From the NCBI GenBank assembly GCA_964016885.1, contig CAXHJY010000081.1, forward strand, positions 35,638-99,637: 64,000 nucleotides of DNA, read 5' to 3'. The stretch's first letter is position 1. The number at the start of each line of letters is the position of its first letter. This document shows, in pieces, positions 3,681 to 63,313 of this stretch. Below the pieces are notes generated by a model. It saw only the letters and a list, made by a program, of their open reading frames with translations, had not been told where the DNA came from and searched no databases. The position numbers were made by a program, and so were the translations under genes. Origin of the DNA: Eledone cirrhosa. Taxonomy: Eukaryota.

Positions 3681-4001
3681 AAGTGGTTTGAGGGATATCT
3701 GGTTGCTATTTCTTGCAAGTAAAGGAACCACGTGAACGTTGCTTTAGCGTTAAAGTATTATATATATATATTTTTTCATATATATGAAAAGTTAGGGGCC
3801 CCAACGGCTGAGCTCCTGCCGTTTCAACAGCTAATTCCGGGTACTCTGGTGAGTAATGGTCTAACAGGTTTTTACTTCATCCATTCTGATATATATATAT
3901 ATATATATATATATGTACGTTATTCCGGGTAGAATCGGAGGTAACCACAGTAAGTAAGGTACTCAATACATAGCAGAGTATAAAAGTTTTAATATAGATG
4001 A

Positions 4002-4050
4002 GATTCTACAGGACTAGAACTGTTTCATTCTTTAGAAATCATCAGGAATC
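4002..4050 (-). ncRNA. Type I hammerhead ribozyme, family A
   Basis: Reverse complement reads gattc-CTGATGA-t.ttc taaa gaa.t-GAAA-cag ttctagtc ctg-TA-gaatc. Stems I, II and III pair; GUA cleavage triplet. Confidence 0.8.
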
Positions 4051-4089
4051 ATTCCTGATGATTTCATTCTTTAGAAATCATCAGGAATC

Positions 4090-4136
4090 ATTCCTGATGA
4101 TTTCTAAAGAATGAAACAGTTCTAGTCCTGTAGAAT
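4090..4136 (+). ncRNA. Type I hammerhead ribozyme, family A
   Basis: attc-CTGATGA-tttctaaagaat-GAAA-cagttctagtcctg-TA-gaat. Confidence 0.8.
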
Positions 4137-4150
4137 CTCATCTATATTAA

Positions 4151-4190
<40 letters not shown>

Positions 4191-4684: not shown

Positions 4685-4778
4685 TAGTAAGACCATTAGT
4701 TGGCAGAGAACTATACATATGGGATAGTAGAAAATCGGAGTCGACGGTTGAGCTCTTGCCCTTTCGACAGCTAATTCC

Positions 4779-4972: not shown

Positions 4973-5017
4973 AATATTGCTGATGAGTTGTAACAACAAC
5001 GAAACTAGTTCAATATT
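4973..5017 (+). ncRNA. Minimal type I hammerhead ribozyme with canonical core
   Basis: aatattg-CTGATGA-gttg taacaa caac-GAAA-ctag-TT-caatatt: 7-bp stem I, G10.1-C11.1 stem II, palindromic CTAG stem III, GUU site. Confidence 0.9.
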
Positions 5018-5336: not shown

Positions 5337-5410
5337 GATGTATATGGAATGTATATGGACAACCGTATGGAATTAGCTGTCGAAACGATATATATATAGG
5401 AACGAGTAGG

Positions 5411-5506
5411 ACCCCGACGGCTGAGCTCAAGTCGTTTCGACGGCTAATTCTGGACTAAATGAAAATTTTTATCCTGGTATTTGAATAGCCGAGCTTCTCA
5501 AGGGGT
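5411..5506 (-). ncRNA. Hammerhead-like motif with a U3-A8 variant core (family B, full copy)
   Basis: Reverse complement acccc-TTGAGAA-g..cggcta...tagccg.c-GAAA-cgact tgagctc agccg-TC-ggggt. Stem I is acccc/ggggt; GUC site. Confidence 0.6.
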
Positions 5507-5640
5507 AATTCCATATATGGTAAAAGTGATTGTCACAAGGATTGGTCAAAAGTTTGTTCTTGAGACATAATAATTCTATGATGGAAATTTGTGGAGGGAG
5601 AGGGTAGCTGAACCTTCGTTATATATATATATATATATAT

Positions 5641-5852
5641 AACGAAGGAAATGTGGTAAGGAACCAGGTGGACCATAAGGCACCAAAGTACTCAATACTT
5701 AGGGTAGTAGAGTGGGTAATAGGAACGAGTAGGACCACCCCGACAGCTGAGCTCAAGCCGTTTCGACGGCTAATTCTGGACTCAGAATTCTGAGTCCAGA
5801 ATTAGTCGTCGAAACAGCTTGAGCTCAGCCGTCGGGGTCCTACTCGTTCCTA
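5641..5852. mobile_element. Family B (TA)n-inserted fold-back element with only the 3' half of a hammerhead in each arm
   Basis: Inverted arms ggaacgagtaggac...gtcctactcgttcc. Related copies at about 3786, 4720, 5398, 6650, 8400, 12391, 34941, 56927 and 60950. Confidence 0.75.
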
Positions 5853-5896
<44 letters not shown>

Positions 5897-6763
5897 CTCC
5901 CCTTCTCTCTCTCGCTCTCTAGAAAGAGAGACAGAGAAGCTGACAGATACACAGACAAAAATACAAAGAGAGAAATTGAAAAGGGGCAGAAAATCAGAGA
6001 GAAAGAGAGAGAGGGGGGGGGGGTAGAACGAGAGAGGGGGAGAGAAAACGAGAAAGAGAGAGAGAGTGTGTGACAGAGGGGGACAGGTGCCGATAAGAAA
6101 AGGGTAGAAGACAGCACACAGGCTGACAACAACAACACCACGACTTTTCTGAGGGTTTCTTTCTTCCCCCTCGACTCGTTCCCTTTTCGTTGCGCCCTAA
6201 ATCTCCCTCCTCCATAAACTGACTTAAGCAATGAGGCGAACACAAGGGAGTGAACCCTGTTGTTACAACACCGTCACCCCTGCTGTTTAACGAGAGGGGG
6301 GTGTTTGTGAGAGGGAGGGCTATTCTATCAGCCTGCTATCCCGCCCCCTTTTCTTCTGCCTCTCTACCCACCCACCTGCCCACCTACCTACATCTTTCTA
6401 TTGAGCGAGCAGTGCACACGAGGGAGGTAAAAAAACCAAGTACTCTAACGCTACGTTCACGCGGTCCCCTTACTTGCTAGAAATAGCAGCCAGATAGCCC
6501 CCATTTACACACACACACACACACACATATACCCTGGCGTATTAAAAAACAACAACTTCATATTGGATAATGTACTTTTAGAGAAGCTGTGTTTTCCGTA
6601 CACACACATCTTGCATTACACACACACACACACACATATATATATAAATATAGGAACGAGTAGGACCCCGACGGCTGAGCTCAAGCTGTTTCGACGACTA
6701 ATATATATATGTGTGTGTGTGTGTGTAATATATATGTGTGTGTGTGTGTGTGTAATATATATA

Positions 6764-8367: not shown

Positions 8368-8399
<32 letters not shown>

Positions 8400-8403
<4 letters not shown>

Positions 8404-8580
8404 AAAATAGTCAGGACCCCGACGGCAGAGCTCAAGCGGTTTCGACGGCTCCAGAAATAGCCGTCGAAACAGCTGTCGTCGGGGTCCTGAATCTTTTCCT
8501 ATTTCCCACTCTACTACCCAAAGTATTGAGTACTCTGGTGCGTTACGGTCCATCTAGTTCCTTACCACACTTCCCTCGTT
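8400..8580 (+). mobile_element. Family B element copy
   Basis: Reverse complement of the 5641 element with a short fold-back; (TA)n on both sides. Confidence 0.75.
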
Positions 8581-8601
8581 ATATATATATTACAGAAATG
8601 G

Positions 8602-8649
8602 CTTTTACAGGACGAGAACTGTTTCATTCAAAGGAAATCATCAGGAAAG
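8602..8649 (-). ncRNA. Hammerhead motif, diverged family A variant
   Basis: Reverse complement ctttc-CTGATGA-tttcctttgaat-GAAA-cagttctcgtcctg-TA-aaag. The first stem I pair is mismatched. Confidence 0.6.
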
Positions 8650-8725
8650 ATATATATATATCGACAGAGATCGAACCTTGAGCTGATCAGTAGTGAAGTC
8701 ACCTTTCGTCCCTGTTCTATTATAG

Positions 8726-9240
8726 GGCGGTGGATTGGCAGTATCGGTAGAGGGTCGGACGCCATGCTTTGCAGCATGAAGTTACGTTTCTTTATGGTTT
8801 GAGTTCAAATCCCGTCGAGGTTAACTTTGCCTTTCATCCTTACGGGGTCGATAAAATAAAGTACCTGTCACGCACTAGGGTCGATTTTATCGACTTTCCC
8901 CTCTGCCAAAATTGTTGGCCTTGTGCCTATATAAGAAACCATTATTATTCAGTATCGGTAGAGGGTCGGACGCCATGCTTTGACGCATAGAGTTACGGCC
9001 CTTGCTATTCTGAGTTCAAATCCCGCCGCGGTTAACTTTGCCTTTCATCCTTACGGGGGTCGATAAAATAAAGTACCAGTAATGTACTGGGTAATTGCTG
9101 GCCTTGTGCCAAAAGTAGAAACAATTATTATATATATATATATGGCGGTGATTTGGCAGTATCGGTAGAGGGTCGGACGCCATGCTTTCCAGCATAGTTA
9201 CGTCCCTTTACGATCTGAGTTCAAATCCCGCCGAGGTTGA
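8726..9240 (+). mobile_element. Cluster of three tRNA-derived SINE copies (dominant family; about 19 copies or fragments in the window)
   Basis: A-box-like tggcagtatcggtag, B-box gagttcaaatcc, body actttgcctttcatccttacggggtcgataaaataaagtaccag, and an (att)n tail. Confidence 0.9.
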
Positions 9241-12364: not shown

Positions 12365-12541
12365 TGTATGTATAAATATATATAAATATAAAACAAAGAA
12401 AGTGTGGTAAGAAACCAGGTAGACCATAACGCACCAGAGTACTCGATACTTAGGGTAGTAGAGTGGGTAATAGGGAAAGAGTCAGGACCCCGACGGCTGA
12501 GCTCCGGCCGTTTCGACAGGTAGATTAGATCCGAACTCGTT

Positions 12542-29157: not shown

Positions 29158-29223
29158 CGTTTCTGAATTTGTTTAGCAAGATTCTTTATCTGAAAACGTG
29201 TGTTGAAACCGATATTGTTATAC

Positions 29224-29552
29224 TTTGGGAGGGTCATGTTGCCAATAAGAAACACACGCACCAGTTGCTTTCACTCCAATTTATTATAAATTAAATTTAT
29301 AAATTTAAGAATTGGGCGTAGGACAGAACAAAGGAGAGGCACAAAACAAAGAAAAGAATCCCCAGTCACTGAAGAGGTCACAGAATGTGTGACGAAAGAA
29401 CTTTGACAATATATGAACAACCGTCCGGTTGTGGAACCAACCAACCAACCGGAAATTTATAAATTCTTAAATTTATAAATTTAATTTATAATAAATTGGA
29501 GTGAAAGCAACTGGTGCGTGTGTTTCTTATTGGCAACATGACCCTCCCAAAG
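29224..29552. mobile_element. Cassette with inverted repeats of about 88 bp enclosing a hammerhead
   Basis: tttgggagggtcatgttgcc...aagaatt is mirrored at about 29462-29552; (TA)n lies near both ends. Confidence 0.75.
29365..29407 (+). ncRNA. Type I hammerhead ribozyme
   Basis: gtca-CTGAAGA-g-gtcaca gaatg tgtgac-GAAA-gaac-TT-tgac. Confidence 0.75.
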
Positions 29553-29713
29553 CATAACAATATATATATATATATAACGATATATATATATATATATATA
29601 TAACGATATATATATATAACGATTTTGTTTGGAAATATTGTGGTATTCCATAACCTCCATTTGATGTCGCCTCCATCCATCTACCCCCCCCCCTCTCTCC
29701 ATTCATCGATCTA

Positions 29714-34940: not shown

Positions 34941-34944
<4 letters not shown>

Positions 34945-35130
34945 AAGGAATTGTGGTAAGGAACCAGATGGACCATAACGCACCAGAGTACTCAATACTT
35001 AGGGTAGTAGAGTGGGAAATAGGAAAAGGTATGACCCCCGACGGCAAAGCTCAAGCCATTTCGTCGGCTATTTCTGGAAATAGCCGTCGAAACGGCTTGA
35101 GCTCTGCCGTCGGGGTCATACTTTTTCCTA
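34941..35130. mobile_element. Family B fold-back element
   Basis: Homologous to 5641; arms ggaaaaggtatgaccc...ggggtcatactttttcc. Confidence 0.75.
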
Positions 35131-35150
35131 TATATATATTTATATATATA

Positions 35151-35530: not shown

Positions 35531-35553
35531 ATATATAGTTTTAATATAGATGA

Positions 35554-35602
35554 GATTCTACAGGACTAGAACTGTTTCATTCTTTAGAAATCATCAGGAA
35601 TC
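35554..35602 (-). ncRNA. Type I hammerhead, family A (single arm)
   Basis: Same sequence as 4002-4050. Confidence 0.8.
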
Positions 35603-35625
35603 TGGGTATCAAAAAATAAATATCA

Positions 35626-38110: not shown

Positions 38111-38282
38111 AATTGTTTCTACTTTAGGCACAAGGCCAGCAACTACCCTAGTGTATTACTGGTACTTTATTTTATCGACCCCGTAAGGATGAAAGGCAAA
38201 GTTAACCTCGGCGGGATTTGAACGCAGAATGGCAAGGGCCGTAACTCAATGCGTCAAAGCATGGCGTTCGACACTCTACCGA
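38111..38282 (-). mobile_element. tRNA-derived SINE copy
   Basis: Reverse complement of the dominant family. Confidence 0.9.
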
Positions 38283-38340
38283 AATATATATATATATATA
38301 TATTCATATATATATATGTGTCTATATATATATATATGAA

Positions 38341-38383
38341 TCCTGATGATTTCTCACGAATGAAACAGTTCTAGGCCTGTAGA
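38341..38383 (+). ncRNA. Hammerhead motif, family A variant with truncated stem I
   Basis: tc-CTGATGA-tttctcacgaat-GAAA-cagttctaggcctg-TA-ga, between (TA)n tracts. Confidence 0.6.
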
Positions 38384-38389
38384 AGCTTT

Positions 38390-38443
<54 letters not shown>

Positions 38444-40028: not shown

Positions 40029-40037
<9 letters not shown>

Positions 40038-40418
40038 TAAACAAATAATGAATAAAACAATGAAACAGTTCCTTATATTAAACAAAAAAAGTTCATTATT
40101 TAACGATCGTTTCTAGGATATATATGTGTTAGAATTGGCATGCATATTCAACAGATCTATGTACAAAATTATACAAAATTATACAAACTATCAAGATTAA
40201 ATATACATACCAAACACACGCATATATGTGTGTTTGGTATGTATATTTAATCTTGATAGTTTGTATAATTTTGTATAATTTTGTACATAGATCTGTTGAA
40301 TATGCATGCCAATTCTAACACATATATATCCTAGAAACGATCGTTAAATAATGAACTTTTTTTGTTTAATATAAGGAACTGTTTCATTGTTTTATTCATT
40401 ATTTTTTTAATATTTTAT
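40029..40418. repeat. Near-perfect palindrome with arms of about 195 bp
   Basis: Arms mirror around about 40224. Contains the half-hammerhead GAAA-cgatcg-TT and abuts (TA)n on the left. Confidence 0.9.
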
Positions 40419-42549: not shown

Positions 42550-42580
42550 CAGTAAATACATATATTTTATATATATATAT

Positions 42581-42773
42581 ACGTTATTCCGGGTTGAATC
42601 GGAGGTAACCACAGTAAGTAAGGTACTCAATACATTGCAGAGTATAAAAGTTTTAATATAGATGAGATTCTACAGGACTAGAACTGTTTCATTCTTTAGA
42701 AATCATCAGGAATCAGAGATTCCTGATGATTTCTAAAGAATGAAACAGTTCTAGTCCTGTAGAATCTCATCTA

Positions 42774-42775
<2 letters not shown>
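42581..42775. mobile_element. Family A fold-back element with opposed hammerheads (42666-42714 on -, 42716-42768 on +)
   Basis: Near-identical to 3916. The + copy has a 7-bp stem I, gagattc/gaatctc. Confidence 0.85.
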
Positions 42776-42842
<67 letters not shown>

Positions 42843-52605: not shown

Positions 52606-53478
52606 TTTCTCTTTCTCTTAATTTCGAGTATATTTTTTTGACCGGCCACCTTCCTGGTGGCAAGGTTGTAAAGGAAAAGAAATTGTCATCCCTTGAATCG
52701 CAAGAATGTTTTGCATATTTTGAAGGTGCCAGCTATCGCAGCCATTTGTAGACTATGAATTAGGGAGCTGCGCTTTTTGTCCGCAAATCCAAGTTCGGTC
52801 ATACTTTGGTCCAAGCGGGTTGGTATATAACCCGTAGCACCAATAATGATGGGTATGAAGCTAAAGGTGTATCTTGGATACTGGATTTGTAAGCTCCTCA
52901 TCAATGGTCCGTAGATGTCCTCCTTCTCCTGTATTTTTCTGACAACGTTTACATCAAGTGGGCAGCTGATCTCCACAACAGAACACGTTTTCAATGTGTG
53001 GTCCCAAACTACAATATCAGGCCGGTTGTGCTTTAATTTGGTGGCAGTTTTTATTTTCAGGTTCCACCAGTATTCCTTGGTGCCATCTGTCTCAATATAT
53101 TCTTCCTCGTTTGTTGTTAATTTTGTTTTCCGAAGTGCGTTCCAGATAGTTCTAGTTATCCCATCGTGTCTCATGGGGAGGTAGTAGCGAGATGACATTC
53201 TTTCGCAGCTGGCAACAATGTGGCTTACATCCTCGATCTTTGTTTTACATAGCCTACATTTATTGTCAGCTGCTGGCCCTCCTCTTTTGTGCAGCAGATA
53301 TTTGGTAGGGAGTTCTTGTTCCTGTATTGCATAGAGATATCCCTCAAGGTGTGATGTCATAAACTTGTCGGAACTCCATGCCAGGCTTTTTGAGTGGTTT
53401 ATCCCCTCTATGGTCTGTGTTTTACGCCTCAAGTATCCATGCACAACTTTCTCTGTAAATTGGTCAATTTTTTTTTTG
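52606..53478 (-). mobile_element. 5'-truncated R4/Dong-like non-LTR retrotransposon (CCHC knuckle plus RLE) with an uninterrupted frame
   Basis: HGY...[10 protein letters not shown]...[16 protein letters not shown]...RHD...RPDIVVWD...EISCPLD...EKEDIY. Stop at 52686, short 3' UTR, (TACA)n on both sides. Confidence 0.9.
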
Positions 53479-53556
53479 TATGTATGTATGTATGTATGTA
53501 TGTATGTATGTATGTATGTATGTATGTATGTATGTATGTATGTATGTATGTATATG

Positions 53557-53591
<35 letters not shown>

Positions 53592-53691
53592 GTATATATA
53601 TGTATATATATATAAATATATATGTATATATATATATATATGTATATATATGTATATATATATAAATATGTATATATAAATACATATATAT

Positions 53692-53776
<85 letters not shown>

Positions 53777-53797
53777 ATAAACAACATAAGGCAATTA

Positions 53798-53857
53798 TTC
53801 CATTTACCAGTGGTTTCTTAAAAGCAAAAAATGTTGCTTTCAATCCTCAGAATGAAA
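53798..53857 (-). ncRNA. Type I hammerhead ribozyme
   Basis: Reverse complement tttcatt-CTGAGGA-ttgaaagca...tgcttttaa-GAAA-ccactgg-TA-aatggaa: 7-bp stem I and 9-bp stem II. Confidence 0.85.
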
Positions 53858-54116: not shown

Positions 54117-54152
54117 TATATATATATATATATATAGTTTTAATATAGATGA

Positions 54153-54201
54153 GATTCTACAGGACTAGAACTGTTTCATTCTTTAGAAATCCTCAGGAAT
54201 C
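54153..54201 (-). ncRNA. Type I hammerhead, family A (core CTGAGGA)
   Basis: As 4002-4050, with a substitution only at the free N7 position. Confidence 0.8.
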
Positions 54202-54217
54202 ATTATATATATATAAT

Positions 54218-54405
54218 GGCGGAGGATTGGCAGTATCGGTAGAGGGTCGGACGCCATGCTTTCCAGCATAATTACGTCCCTTTACGATCTGAGTTCAAAT
54301 CCCGCCGAGGTTGACTTTGCCTTTCATCCTTACGGGGTCGATAAAATAAAGTACCAGTAATGCACTGGGTAATTGCTGGCCGTGTGCCTAAAGTAGAAAC
54401 AATTA
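54218..54405 (+). mobile_element. Full-length tRNA-derived SINE copy
   Basis: A box, B box, body and tail all present. Confidence 0.9.
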
Positions 54406-54419
54406 TATATATATATATA

Positions 54420-54737
54420 TAAATGAAGTAACAGGAGGTTGGACTGGTGTAAATCCTTGAAAGGTTTATTATACTCTGATCATTTCAATGACCGGGTTCC
54501 ATATGAATCCGATGATATCATCAGGTATTGGAATATAACAAAGGAATATGTAAAAAGCCATGGGTCCGAAAAACCAGAGACAGAAAGGGCGGACCCATGG
54601 CTTTTATATATTCCTTTGTTATATTCCAATACCTGATGATATCACCGGATTCATACGGAACCCGGTCATTGAAATGATCATAGTATAATAAACTTTTCAA
54701 GGATTTACACCAGTCCAGCCACCCTGTTATTTTATTT
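54420..54737. mobile_element. Family C fold-back element (arms about 148 bp) with a hammerhead in each arm
   Basis: Arms mirror around an approximately 20-nt spacer near 54570-54588, with several mismatches. Confidence 0.8.
54629..54686 (+). ncRNA. Type I hammerhead ribozyme, family C
   Basis: atac-CTGATGA-tat.accgg...ccggt.att-GAAA-tgatca-TA-gtat, followed by aataaa. Confidence 0.8.
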
Positions 54738-56718: not shown

Positions 56719-57032
56719 TCTTAGTATTAAATACTTGGCCACCCGTTGGGTCACGTTGGGTCACGTTCGCTTCAAAATATCTTTTTAAAAATCATGTTCA
56801 CTTAAAAATCCTTTTTAAATAATTAAAATATACAGACATGTATATAAGGTGAAATGAAACTGGAAGGCCAATATATATATATATACGTGTGTGTATGTGT
56901 GTGTTTGTATACACACATACACACACAGCCGTCGAAACGGCTTGAGCTCTGCCGTCGGGGTCATACTTTTTCCTATATATATATATATATATATATATAT
57001 GGGTGTCTGTGATCTATATACACTGGTCATAG

Positions 57033-60834: not shown

Positions 60835-61183
<349 letters not shown>

Positions 61184-61806
61184 TCACATATATATATATA
61201 AAGTTAGTTCGACAACTACTTCTACCAATTGTTTATTATACATTAAATATTTAGCTCTGTAACTTATATAGGGCACTCTTCATTCGTCTGACTTTTTCAA
61301 TTTTCAACGGAAACTTCAATACTTATATATATATTAGAAATATAAGCTTTCACCGTATTTTTTACTAAAGAAATTTTAGCCTGATAGTGGGATTTAGAAC
61401 CCTCAGAGAAATGGAAAAAGATGAGTATTGACGTACATGTGAGTCAAACCCACATCTTTGGTTATCCAGACCACTGTGCTACCATTACACCAACACATCA
61501 CCCATCTCCTTACATTCTTAGCAAGTAAATGTCAAGTAAGTGTCAAGTAAGTATGTTTTGAAACAGTGAGCGAGTTTGAAATTAGAAATATAAGCTTTCA
61601 CCGTATTTTTGACTAAAGAAATTTTTAGCCTGATAGTGGGGTTTATATATAAGTGATTCTAAGAGATGAACATGAATGGACCTGTTACTTTATTATTTTA
61701 TTATTTATCAGTAGAATGAACCCTTCATTCTTGCTCTTGTGTTGGTATGATTTATTCTACTGACATGGCTTAAAAGAGGCTGTTTGCATAATTGCAAACG
61801 AATCGA

Positions 61807-62406
61807 AATCCCGCCGAGGTTAACTTTGCCTTTCATCCTTACGGGGTCGATAAAATAAAGTACCAGTAATGCACTGGGTAATTGCTGGCCTTGTGCCAAA
61901 AGTAGAAACAATTATTAATATTCGAAAAACTCAGATTACATTTATGTTTATTTAATACAACGGCAATATAGAAAGGAATTTTAAATATATTTTCAAGGTA
62001 CATAACTCGTATAAAAACACGAAGAGTAATGTCCCTTGAGTTTATGTTAACACTGACTGAATCGCGGTCAAGTGGATTAGTGCTAATGAAAATCAGTAAT
62101 TGAATCAAATGACTCCAACGAGTCATTGCATACGCTAGCAAAACGGGTTTTATAAAGTTACCTCCCTTTGACAGTTTATATATATATATATGTGTGTGTG
62201 TGTATAATGATATATGCTTGCAGTGTTGGATTTCGGCGTTGCTGCCACCCACACTGCGCCAAAACTATGGAAGCTCTCTTTTTTTCTTTCATTCTTTCTT
62301 TCATTCTTTCTCTCACTCTCTCTTTCTCTCACTCTCTCTTTCTCTCACTCTCTCTTTCTCTCTCTCTCTTTCTCTCACTCTCTCTCTTTCTCTCTCTCTC
62401 TCTCTT

Positions 62407-62582: not shown

Positions 62583-63090
62583 CTCTTTCTCTCACTCTCA
62601 CTTTCTTTCTCTCTCTCTCTCTCTATATATATAAATAATTGTTTCTACTTTTGGCACAAGGCCAGCAAATACCCAGTGTATTACTGGTACTTTATTTTAT
62701 CGACCCCGTAAGGATGAAAGGCAAAGTTAACTTCGGGGTGAGGGGTGGGTGGATTTGAACTCAGAATGTTAAGGGCCGTAACTCAATGCGTCAAAGCATG
62801 GCGTCCGACTCTACCGATACTGCCACTCCACCGCCCTTAATCTGTATATCTAAAACAGAGAATGTCTGTCTGTCTGACTCCCTAAAACTCGAGAACCACC
62901 CAACTGATTGTTATATATATATTATGCATATTATATATATATTTGAAGCATAGAGTTACGTCCCTTTATGATCTGAGCTCAAATCTCGCCGAGGTTAACT
63001 TTGCCTTTCATCCTTACGGGGTCGATAAAATAAAGTACCAGTAATGTACTGGTTAATTGCTGGCCTTGTGCCAAAAGTAGAAACAATTAT
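61807..63090. mobile_element. Three SINE copies (61807-61917 +, 62636-62835 -, 62945-63090 +) around a (CT)n tract
   Basis: Dominant family body sequence. Confidence 0.85.
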
Positions 63091-63109: not shown

Positions 63110-63311
63110 AGTTTTAATATAGATGAGATTCTACAGGACTAGAACTGTTTCATTCTTTAGAAATCATCAGGAATCTCTGAGATTCCTGATGATTTCTAAG
63201 AATGAAACAGTTCTAGTCCTGTAGAATCTCATCTATATTAAAACTTTTATACTCTGCAATGTATTGAGTACCTTACTTACTGTGGTTACCTCCGATTCAA
63301 CCCGGAATAAC

Positions 63312-63313
<2 letters not shown>
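63110..63313. mobile_element. Family A fold-back element with opposed hammerheads (63125-63177 on -, 63179-63230 on +)
   Basis: Reverse orientation of the 42581 element; both ribozymes have a 7-bp stem I. Confidence 0.85.

Follow-up and report, generated by a model that had tools for sequence, protein, structure and literature searches.

Head-to-head fold-backs bearing a variant hammerhead motif in Eledone cirrhosa as probable minimal insertions of a Penelope-like 3' repeat

How does a genome come to carry a hammerhead motif and its own antisense back to back within a single short repeat, and is the arrangement built to function or only a trace of how the repeat was inserted? The question is raised by positions 42,581 to 42,775 of a 64,000-nucleotide stretch of Eledone cirrhosa DNA (contig CAXHJY010000081.1), which we analysed as a whole and call the window. 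An earlier note had described three near-identical fold-backs, at 3916, 42581 and 63110, each made of a long arm and a short inverted arm. They are there as described, with long arms matching at 134/134, 133/133 (one gap) and 132/134 positions, and the single-arm copies reported at 35538 and 54137 are present too (Table 1). We call this repeat family A.

Each of the three two-armed copies runs in the same order, from (TA)n through the long arm, the junction and the inverted short arm to (TA)n again. The long arms of 42581 and 63110 are the same except for a 1-nt deletion, and that of 3916 has two changed tail positions. The palindrome of 42581 is 57 bp with a 3-nt loop. (TA)n borders the 3' end of all eight family A arms, target-site duplications being unreadable inside such a repeat, and the left and right flanks of each copy show no relation to one another (local scores 16-25). 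Junctions had been said to differ from copy to copy. This holds for 3916, but not for 42581 and 63110, whose junctions are one 2-nt indel apart and have their inserted letters in common. The extra serial inversions that had been read at 4051-4089 dissolve on inspection: there is a 43-nt identical run of period 39 in which the same junction occurs twice, and a single inversion plus a 39-nt direct duplication is the simpler account. Among the neighbours of these arms is an abundant SINE-like repeat (54218-54400, 62960-63085, 38120-38280, 8730-8880, 61810-61920), which often adjoins (TA)n and family A arms. A tRNA-like stretch at 61429-61499 (-), possibly a SINE head, reaches the Rfam gathering score (39.5 bits).

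Table 1. Family A and family B features in the window (positions count from its first letter).
Feature	Position	Strand	Remarks
Family A long arm	42581..42714	-	hammerhead motif, 22-nt spacer and ~68-nt tail, (TA)n at end
Family A tail	42581..42648	-	on one arm only; contains 11-nt motif also in family B; both 3' ends in reads
Variant type I hammerhead motif, minus-strand	42666..42714	-	helix I 5 bp; predicted cut between 42671 and 42670
Head-to-head junction	42715..42716	.	2 inserted letters
Family A short arm with variant type I hammerhead motif	42716..42775	+	core from 42723; predicted cut after 42761
Family A fold-back	3916..4154	.	39-nt direct duplication across junction; 2 long-arm tail positions differ
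Family A fold-back	63110..63313	.	short arm (-) then long arm (+); loop II 1-nt deletion, long arm only
Family A lone short arm	35538..35625	-	~22 nt natural upstream sequence: T-rich tract, acceptor-like AG; upstream matches 635 and 710 reads
Family A lone short arm	54137..54202	-	core position 7 changed
Older family A relative, lone short arm	38338..38398	+	54/61
Older family A relative, lone short arm	8590..8650	-	39/45 across aligned part
Family B fold-back	5641..5853	.	layout as family A; GAAAC half of hammerhead-like motif only
Family B fold-back	60950..61155	.	same layout
Family B fold-back	34941..35131	.	same layout
Family B fold-back	8399..8580	.	same layout
Family B-like inverted pair, non-overlapping arms	3780..3890	.	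inverted short arm and tail-only arm
Family B arm with ~170 nt upstream extension	5396..5625	-	then 8-nt inverted tail-like stub
Family B singles	6650-6702, 12392-12517, 56927-56976, 4742-4777

That each strand carries a complete hammerhead preceded by its own antisense was borne out, in the form of a variant type I motif: a type I hammerhead descriptor matches both strands in all three fold-backs, and it also matches the single arms 35538 and 54137. Every core letter (CUGANGA, GAAA, NUH) is kept and helices I and III are formed, with 4-8 bp in helix I, 3 bp in helix II and 4 bp in helix III, the last capped by an 8-nt loop. Helix II is closed by U-U instead of G10.1-C11.1 and falls short of the long helix II that defines the minimal hammerheads of Penelope-like elements (PLEs). 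In an alignment of seven arms, helices II and III are paired 100% in 7/7 rows and the core is invariant but for position 7. Only one of 13 helix pairs is changed on both sides, a value equalled in 115 of 500 shuffles in an alignment that holds three distinct lineages. Across the window no Rfam hammerhead family reached its gathering score, and at E up to 10 over 42560-42800 the 23 Rfam matches comprised sub-threshold hairpin matches and no hammerhead model; the exact 27-nt family A core occurs at no locus in metagenome contigs and at none in viral contigs. We class the family A ribozyme as a variant type I hammerhead motif only, with a putative self-cleavage site. Further hammerhead-like motifs lie at 4980(+), 5331(-), 29010(+), 29369(+), 37856(-), 31038(+) and 24860(+), several of them with the palindromic loop III typical of minimal Penelope hammerheads; the one at 29369 sits between 98-bp inverted repeats (29216-29559).

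Comparison of the window with itself for local palindromes revealed a second fold-back family, family B, also bordered by (TA)n, about 200 bp long and laid out as family A. Four different junctions are found in its four fold-back copies, two in each of two subfamilies. Family B arms contain GAAAC, GUC and, as helix III, a stem with a palindromic loop, but lack the CUGANGA half; the one copy that extends further upstream, 5396-5625, has only a degenerate CUGANGA half about 86 nt above the cut site, so that the ribozyme identity of family B is putative. The tails of the two families have an 11-nt motif in common, and their overall likeness is modest (17 of 2000 shuffles score as high). Two of these loci bear on how the arms arose. 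The family B fold-back at 5641-5853 is a perfect palindrome in which an odd 5-nt piece is mirrored on both sides of the centre. In the family B-like pair at 3780-3890, the inverted short arm adjoins an arm made of tail only, from which the sequence of the short arm is missing.

Whatever the family, one arm is tailed and the other tail-less. This is so in all seven palindromes of A and B (p 0.008 under free choice at 51:49, a value in which 42581 and 63110 may be non-independent), and in 9/9 cases once the two non-overlapping pairs are added. Two-armed copies of A and B number at least nine in the 64 kb, and no fewer than 665 of the 64,000 bases belong to local hairpins that are ungapped and at least 40 bp long. 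Other palindromic loci were also noted. At 40030-40417 there is a 388-bp near-perfect palindrome (95%) with (TA)n on the left only and a 13-nt word in common with the family A core (E about 0.1-0.3). At 54422-54736 another hammerhead-bearing family forms a head-to-head pair with a spacer of about 25 nt, its cores at 54524 (-) and 54633 (+) and its arms reaching well upstream of the motif.

Independent reads and contigs were aligned to the sense long arm 63178-63313. The sources were the raw RAD runs X21 and X22 (species label as in X1) and the contig sets X1 and X5 (X5 under another organism label), four of the 23 runs listed. The family A long arm attracted 4,675 of 12,467,656 reads in X21 and 5,003 of 12,785,554 in X22. 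Two 3' ends, each leading into (TA)n, are prominent, one at 63245 (417 reads in X21, 532 in X22) and one at 63310 (398 and 475). Among the loose ends listed, the commonest upstream sequence, at 63180, is a T-rich stretch like that of copy 35538 (635 and 710 reads); the two read consensuses and copy 35538 are alike over some 20 letters above the helix, beyond which they diverge.

The joints listed from these sources fall into 13 rows, five of direct tandems and eight joining opposite strands. In the direct tandems 63248 is followed, after 7-8 letters, by 63180 (68 reads with 17 starts in X21, 22 with 7 in X22, and two contigs in X1); the repeating unit thus measures about 77 nt and holds a single hammerhead motif. 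The earlier note had set the element apart from tandem direct-repeat retrozymes, a separation that does not survive these read tandems; whole arrays of at least two units, each with a full type I hammerhead, are absent from the window, and the tandem joints come from the reads. The unit is shorter than the retrozyme units given in the published text consulted, and would be a candidate for dimer cleavage and a small circular RNA. In seven of the eight opposite-strand rows, with 128 and 192 reads, the partners are an inverted ribozyme arm and a tail arm whose start lies at 63246-63264; these inverted arms most likely belong to related subfamilies, because their aligned part ends at 63200-63203. 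The eighth has its turning point within helix II, at 63193/63201, and is backed by 50 and 72 reads, with a single start in each run, and by one contig. The helix I junction of the window copies (63178-63183) appears in none of the 13 rows listed from the X21 and X22 reads and the X1 and X5 contigs, its place being at the first letters of the reference, and none of the contig pieces listed spans a whole family A arm. The missing junction counts against the fold-backs of the window, but weakly. In X5, where related subfamilies dominate, contigs covering 63180-63245 show a mismatch-free family A short arm at low depth. Otherwise, the independent reads bear out family A, both of its 3' ends and related inversions.

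Where do the arms stop? Counted from the cut site, the 5' stop falls at -43 to -45 in 7 of 8 family A arms; for family B the range is -30 to -44, which covers 13 of 14 arms. On the 3' side, short ends are found near +20 to +22, apart from one at +13 in family A, and long ends at +90 and +98. The arms had been said to meet at the ribozyme 5' end; 7 of 8 family A arms do end at the outer edge of helix I, all within 3 nt, but arm 35538 adds about 22 nt upstream. The further proposal, that the ribozyme sets the stop and thereby keeps the hammerhead whole, finds no support: family B arms stop inside the motif at a similar distance from the cut site, and one family A fold-back in the reads turns in helix II. 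Since the reach is alike in the two families whereas the ribozyme edge differs, the stop would reflect a landmark in the RNA rather than the edge of the ribozyme. Nor did the cut site qualify as the 5' end of the arms, which hold the whole motif, and the loose ends listed do not pile up there.

The arms of both families extend no further than about 45 nt above the cut site, to a point beside an AG that resembles a splice acceptor. Upstream of family A, a pyrimidine-rich tract (9/12 pyrimidines) is followed by a CAG ending at the helix I edge, and a TGAT adenosine at -22 marks the approximate end of copy 35538 and of the shared read consensus. In family B the upstream T-rich tract leads to a TAG whose last base is at -40, and two long arms, those of 34941 and 8399, begin exactly one base further on. 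An acceptor-like site falls by chance within 2 nt of 2.5-4.3% of positions, a figure to be read with the post hoc choice of the site in mind, a single window copy supplying the upstream sequence of each family. Both families also have an Inr-like A at -45, which fits the stop no less well; it was likewise found post hoc, and such a motif falls by chance within 2 nt of 6.3% of positions. No donor site was identified for the putative intron, and the acceptor is not a general rule, as an AG lies near the helix I edge in at most two of the eight other hammerhead-like motifs of the window. We lean towards a cDNA stop at a template 5' end, left either by a start site or by a splice acceptor whose first exon is very short; a structure or a protein footprint is given a little less than even weight.

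A more specific reading of the same landmark seems unlikely to us but can be stated fully. The turn point would be a 3' splice site, and the fold-back arms would come from spliced RNA whose first exon of a few bases supplies the extra junction letters and a helix I of 7-8 bp. The copies with T-rich upstream sequence would come from unspliced or lariat RNA, stopping at the branch-point-like adenosine 22 nt above the AG, and one RNA would be primed by both target ends, at the tail and at the internal site.

PLE insertions are described as carrying an inverted, 5'-truncated copy at their 5' end and a 30-40 bp tail that is often one-sided, and as using (TA)n targets (PMC8557442). Frequent head-to-head inverted repeats with palindromes at their junctions have been reported, with self-priming as the proposed origin (PMC3846280). 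In work with a purified Penelope-like protein, for which a dimer is predicted, both strands of AT-rich DNA were cleaved and extended; reverse transcription began at two RNA sites bounding the tail, and ribozyme cleavage proved dispensable (PMC11167929). The window shows the same signs: inverted 5'-truncated copies head to head (three palindromes in A, four in B), a one-sided tail (7/7), (TA)n as target and, in reads, partial direct tandems. The link drawn earlier to the inverted pLTRs of PLE insertions is thus supported, head-to-head arms, one-sided tail and (TA)n targets all matching the published pattern, and so is the idea that the inversion is rebuilt at separate insertions, with two, at most three, distinct junctions in the three family A copies and 4/4 in family B.

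On this evidence, we think it probable that each fold-back is a minimal insertion derived from a Penelope-like retroelement and limited to its hammerhead-bearing 3' repeat. Priming would probably have taken place from both ends of a cut (TA)n, with the cDNAs then joined head to head, and the read-through RNA is predicted to be a hairpin from which the ribozyme is folded out. A Penelope-like reverse transcriptase and endonuclease, unseen here, would cut (TA)n, in which all arms end. One DNA end would prime at the tail end (+90 from the cut site) and the other at an internal site (+21/22), the two 3' ends found one each in every two-armed copy. Both cDNAs would halt near an RNA landmark, presumably the reason why arm ends cluster about 39-45 nt above the cut site. 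The two cDNA 3' ends would then be joined, by whatever route, with the 0-3 extra letters seen at the junctions. A tail-primed cDNA running past the internal site would leave a palindrome, and one stopping short of it a non-overlapping inversion as in 3780-3890.

Such a two-ended insertion accounts at once for the fixed tail asymmetry, the lone short arms, the non-overlapping pair and the varied junctions. In particular, the inverted arm of 3780-3890 is not a copy of its partner, since the partner lacks that sequence. We do not use the single at 6650 as proof of two templates: an irregularity in its flank recurs beside the short arm of 5641, and it may have arisen by local duplication. Several points count against the model. 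The mirrored 5-nt piece of 5641-5853 fits self-priming better than two cDNAs; the near-identical junctions of 42581 and 63110 may mean that one copy derives from the other; the tail is 68-78 nt long against the 30-40 nt given in the published text consulted; most reads with a listed 5' loose end continue above the stop zone (635 and 710 at 63180); and the exact helix I junctions are absent among the joints listed from two read runs and two contig sets, the edge of the reference lying there. The mobilising enzyme is assumed, because none of the 30 ORFs scanned with Pfam, of 129 listed in the window, matched a Penelope-like reverse transcriptase or GIY-YIG domain; the family A arm itself has stops in all three sense frames, in contrast to the ORF of an autonomous PLE. 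The only Pfam match noted in that scan is to zf-RVT (E 4e-6), in an ORF at 52686-53846 (-) that is likely a LINE remnant unrelated to family A.

Could a single cDNA suffice? In a variant of the self-priming model of PMC3846280, one tail-primed cDNA would fold back at its 3' end, copy itself as far as the internal site and join the target. The arm ends within a copy, which lie 0-9 nt apart and belong to the same subfamily, speak for it, as do the perfect symmetry of 5641-5853 around a 6-nt palindrome and the extra letters at the 63110 junction, which lengthen the complementarity of helix I. Nevertheless, we hold it to be an unlikely account of the whole set: it cannot yield the non-overlapping 3780-3890 pair, nor lone short arms with the same 3' end, and the family A loops, of 1-3 nt, show no priming microhomology.

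It is improbable, in our view, that a master fold-back unit was transcribed and copied whole, so that the palindrome was simply inherited. The long-arm variants of 42581 and 63110 are in the minority among reads (position 63258), and the junctions of these two copies are one 2-nt indel apart, both of which speak for inheritance; but the junction of 3916 is different, the four family B copies have four junctions in two subfamilies, and a hairpin of 57-66 bp would be a poor template for reverse transcription.

That the fold-backs are chimeras of assembly or library preparation is very improbable. An opposite-strand joint at 63178-63183 is seen in 0/13 listed joint rows, the one observation in favour of this reading, but the junction lay at the edge of the reference, and long perfect hairpins commonly drop out of PCR libraries. 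Moreover, the inversions end at the ends of the element, with flanks that are not mirrored; the short arm ends at the common 3' end of the family, at a point where its partner continues differently; and other head-to-head joints are present in raw reads of two samples. The family A fold-backs are real in the assembly, and probably in the genome.

What would the RNA of a fold-back do? The 42581 fold-back is predicted to fold at -110.5 kcal/mol (z -17.9), a stability reached by none of 200 shuffles. In protein-free equilibrium models, forcing the hammerhead fold costs 70-80 kcal/mol relative to the ensemble in all six fold-back transcripts (three copies, both strands), against 4-5 kcal/mol for single arms, and the probability of the ribozyme fold is below 1e-49 in all six. 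As the 42581 transcript grows, its sense motif is paired to the antisense at all six lengths tested per strand. The read-through RNA is thus predicted to be a stable hairpin with the ribozyme folded out. The alternation between hairpin and ribozyme that had been proposed founders on this energy gap and on the co-transcriptional closing of the hairpin in these models, which make a two-way RNA switch unlikely. A transcript starting at the junction would avoid antisense pairing, but would equal a single-arm RNA. A selected ambisense ribozyme cassette with a switching RNA is barely credible, for all that the core letters are kept on both strands of all three fold-backs: the ribozyme fold is vanishingly rare in the modelled transcripts, the antisense is transcribed first and pairs immediately, family B retains half the motif only, Penelope minimal hammerheads cleave poorly as monomers (PMC4209133) and cleavage is unnecessary for insertion in vitro (PMC11167929). 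The pairing of sense and antisense motifs is most readily taken as a by-product.

In L1 twin priming, two target ends prime cDNAs and the 5' part of the insertion becomes inverted. Families A and B differ from it in that their arms usually overlap into a palindrome and that the internal start is a fixed site. The closer relatives are the endonuclease-bearing PLEs (Penelope/Poseidon, Neptune, Naiad; PMC8557442, PMC3846280, PMC11167929), with which family A shares head-to-head arms, a palindromic junction, a one-sided tail, two 3' ends, (TA)n, a hammerhead near the 3' end and partial direct tandems. As far as those sources describe them, it departs from these elements in that the whole insertion is 60-240 bp and without an ORF, the tail is 68-78 instead of 30-40 nt and the 5' stop zone is narrow, with no autonomous partner found among the 30 ORFs scanned.

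The minimal type I hammerheads of PLEs, which show low activity as monomers, were defined in PMC4209133. Family A has their type I topology, full core and short helix I, with no evident contact between loops 1 and 2, and its acceptor-like AG at the 5' end of helix I recalls the intron of D. virilis Penelope, which is reported there to end at that very point. By the same description, it differs in a helix II of 3 bp with U-U at 10.1/11.1, instead of 7-8 bp with G-C, and in a helix III of 4 bp whose 8-nt loop is only partly palindromic. Tandem retrozymes of animals, likely of Penelope origin (PMC7229834; bioRxiv 10.64898/2026.07.22.740005), offer a third comparison: like these non-LTR retrozymes, family A is non-coding, has a type I hammerhead and direct tandems in reads, and would depend on Penelope for its mobility, whereas its tandem unit is about 77 against roughly 200-400 nt in the text consulted, and its window copies are monomers or fold-backs. 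Searches for ambisense genomic hammerhead cassettes (which surfaced viroid and RNA-world reviews), for twin priming with Penelope and for Penelope hammerheads in octopus returned no description of family A, in a literature from which most subscription papers fell outside; the hammerhead-family lists in the supplements of PMC4209133 and PMC8557442 could include it.

In conclusion, the fold-backs are ordinary in kind, a miniature of a known type of PLE insertion, and their informative parts are the stop landmark and the strict pairing of tailed and tail-less arms. The origin of the tandem and inverted structures of PLEs is named as an open question in PMC8557442 and PMC3846280. Very short, young insertions at high density, each of which can be spanned by one read, mean that a genome-wide table of ends and junctions could separate two-ended priming from self-priming and show what causes the stop. 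Were the 3' splice-site reading true, these mini-insertions would record both the building of PLE inverted repeats and the handling of an intron, and the genome would gain from them a stock of self-contained hairpins on which A-to-I editing could act. Whichever the route, fold-back RNA, if made, would presumably be a hairpin of the kind seen by Dicer or by ADAR-type enzymes. Hyper-editing has been tied to palindromic repeats in frog, and a high dsRNA potential is reported for octopus (PMC5625713); the fold-back hairpins described here could add to that potential and to the hyper-editing reported for octopus in the same source.
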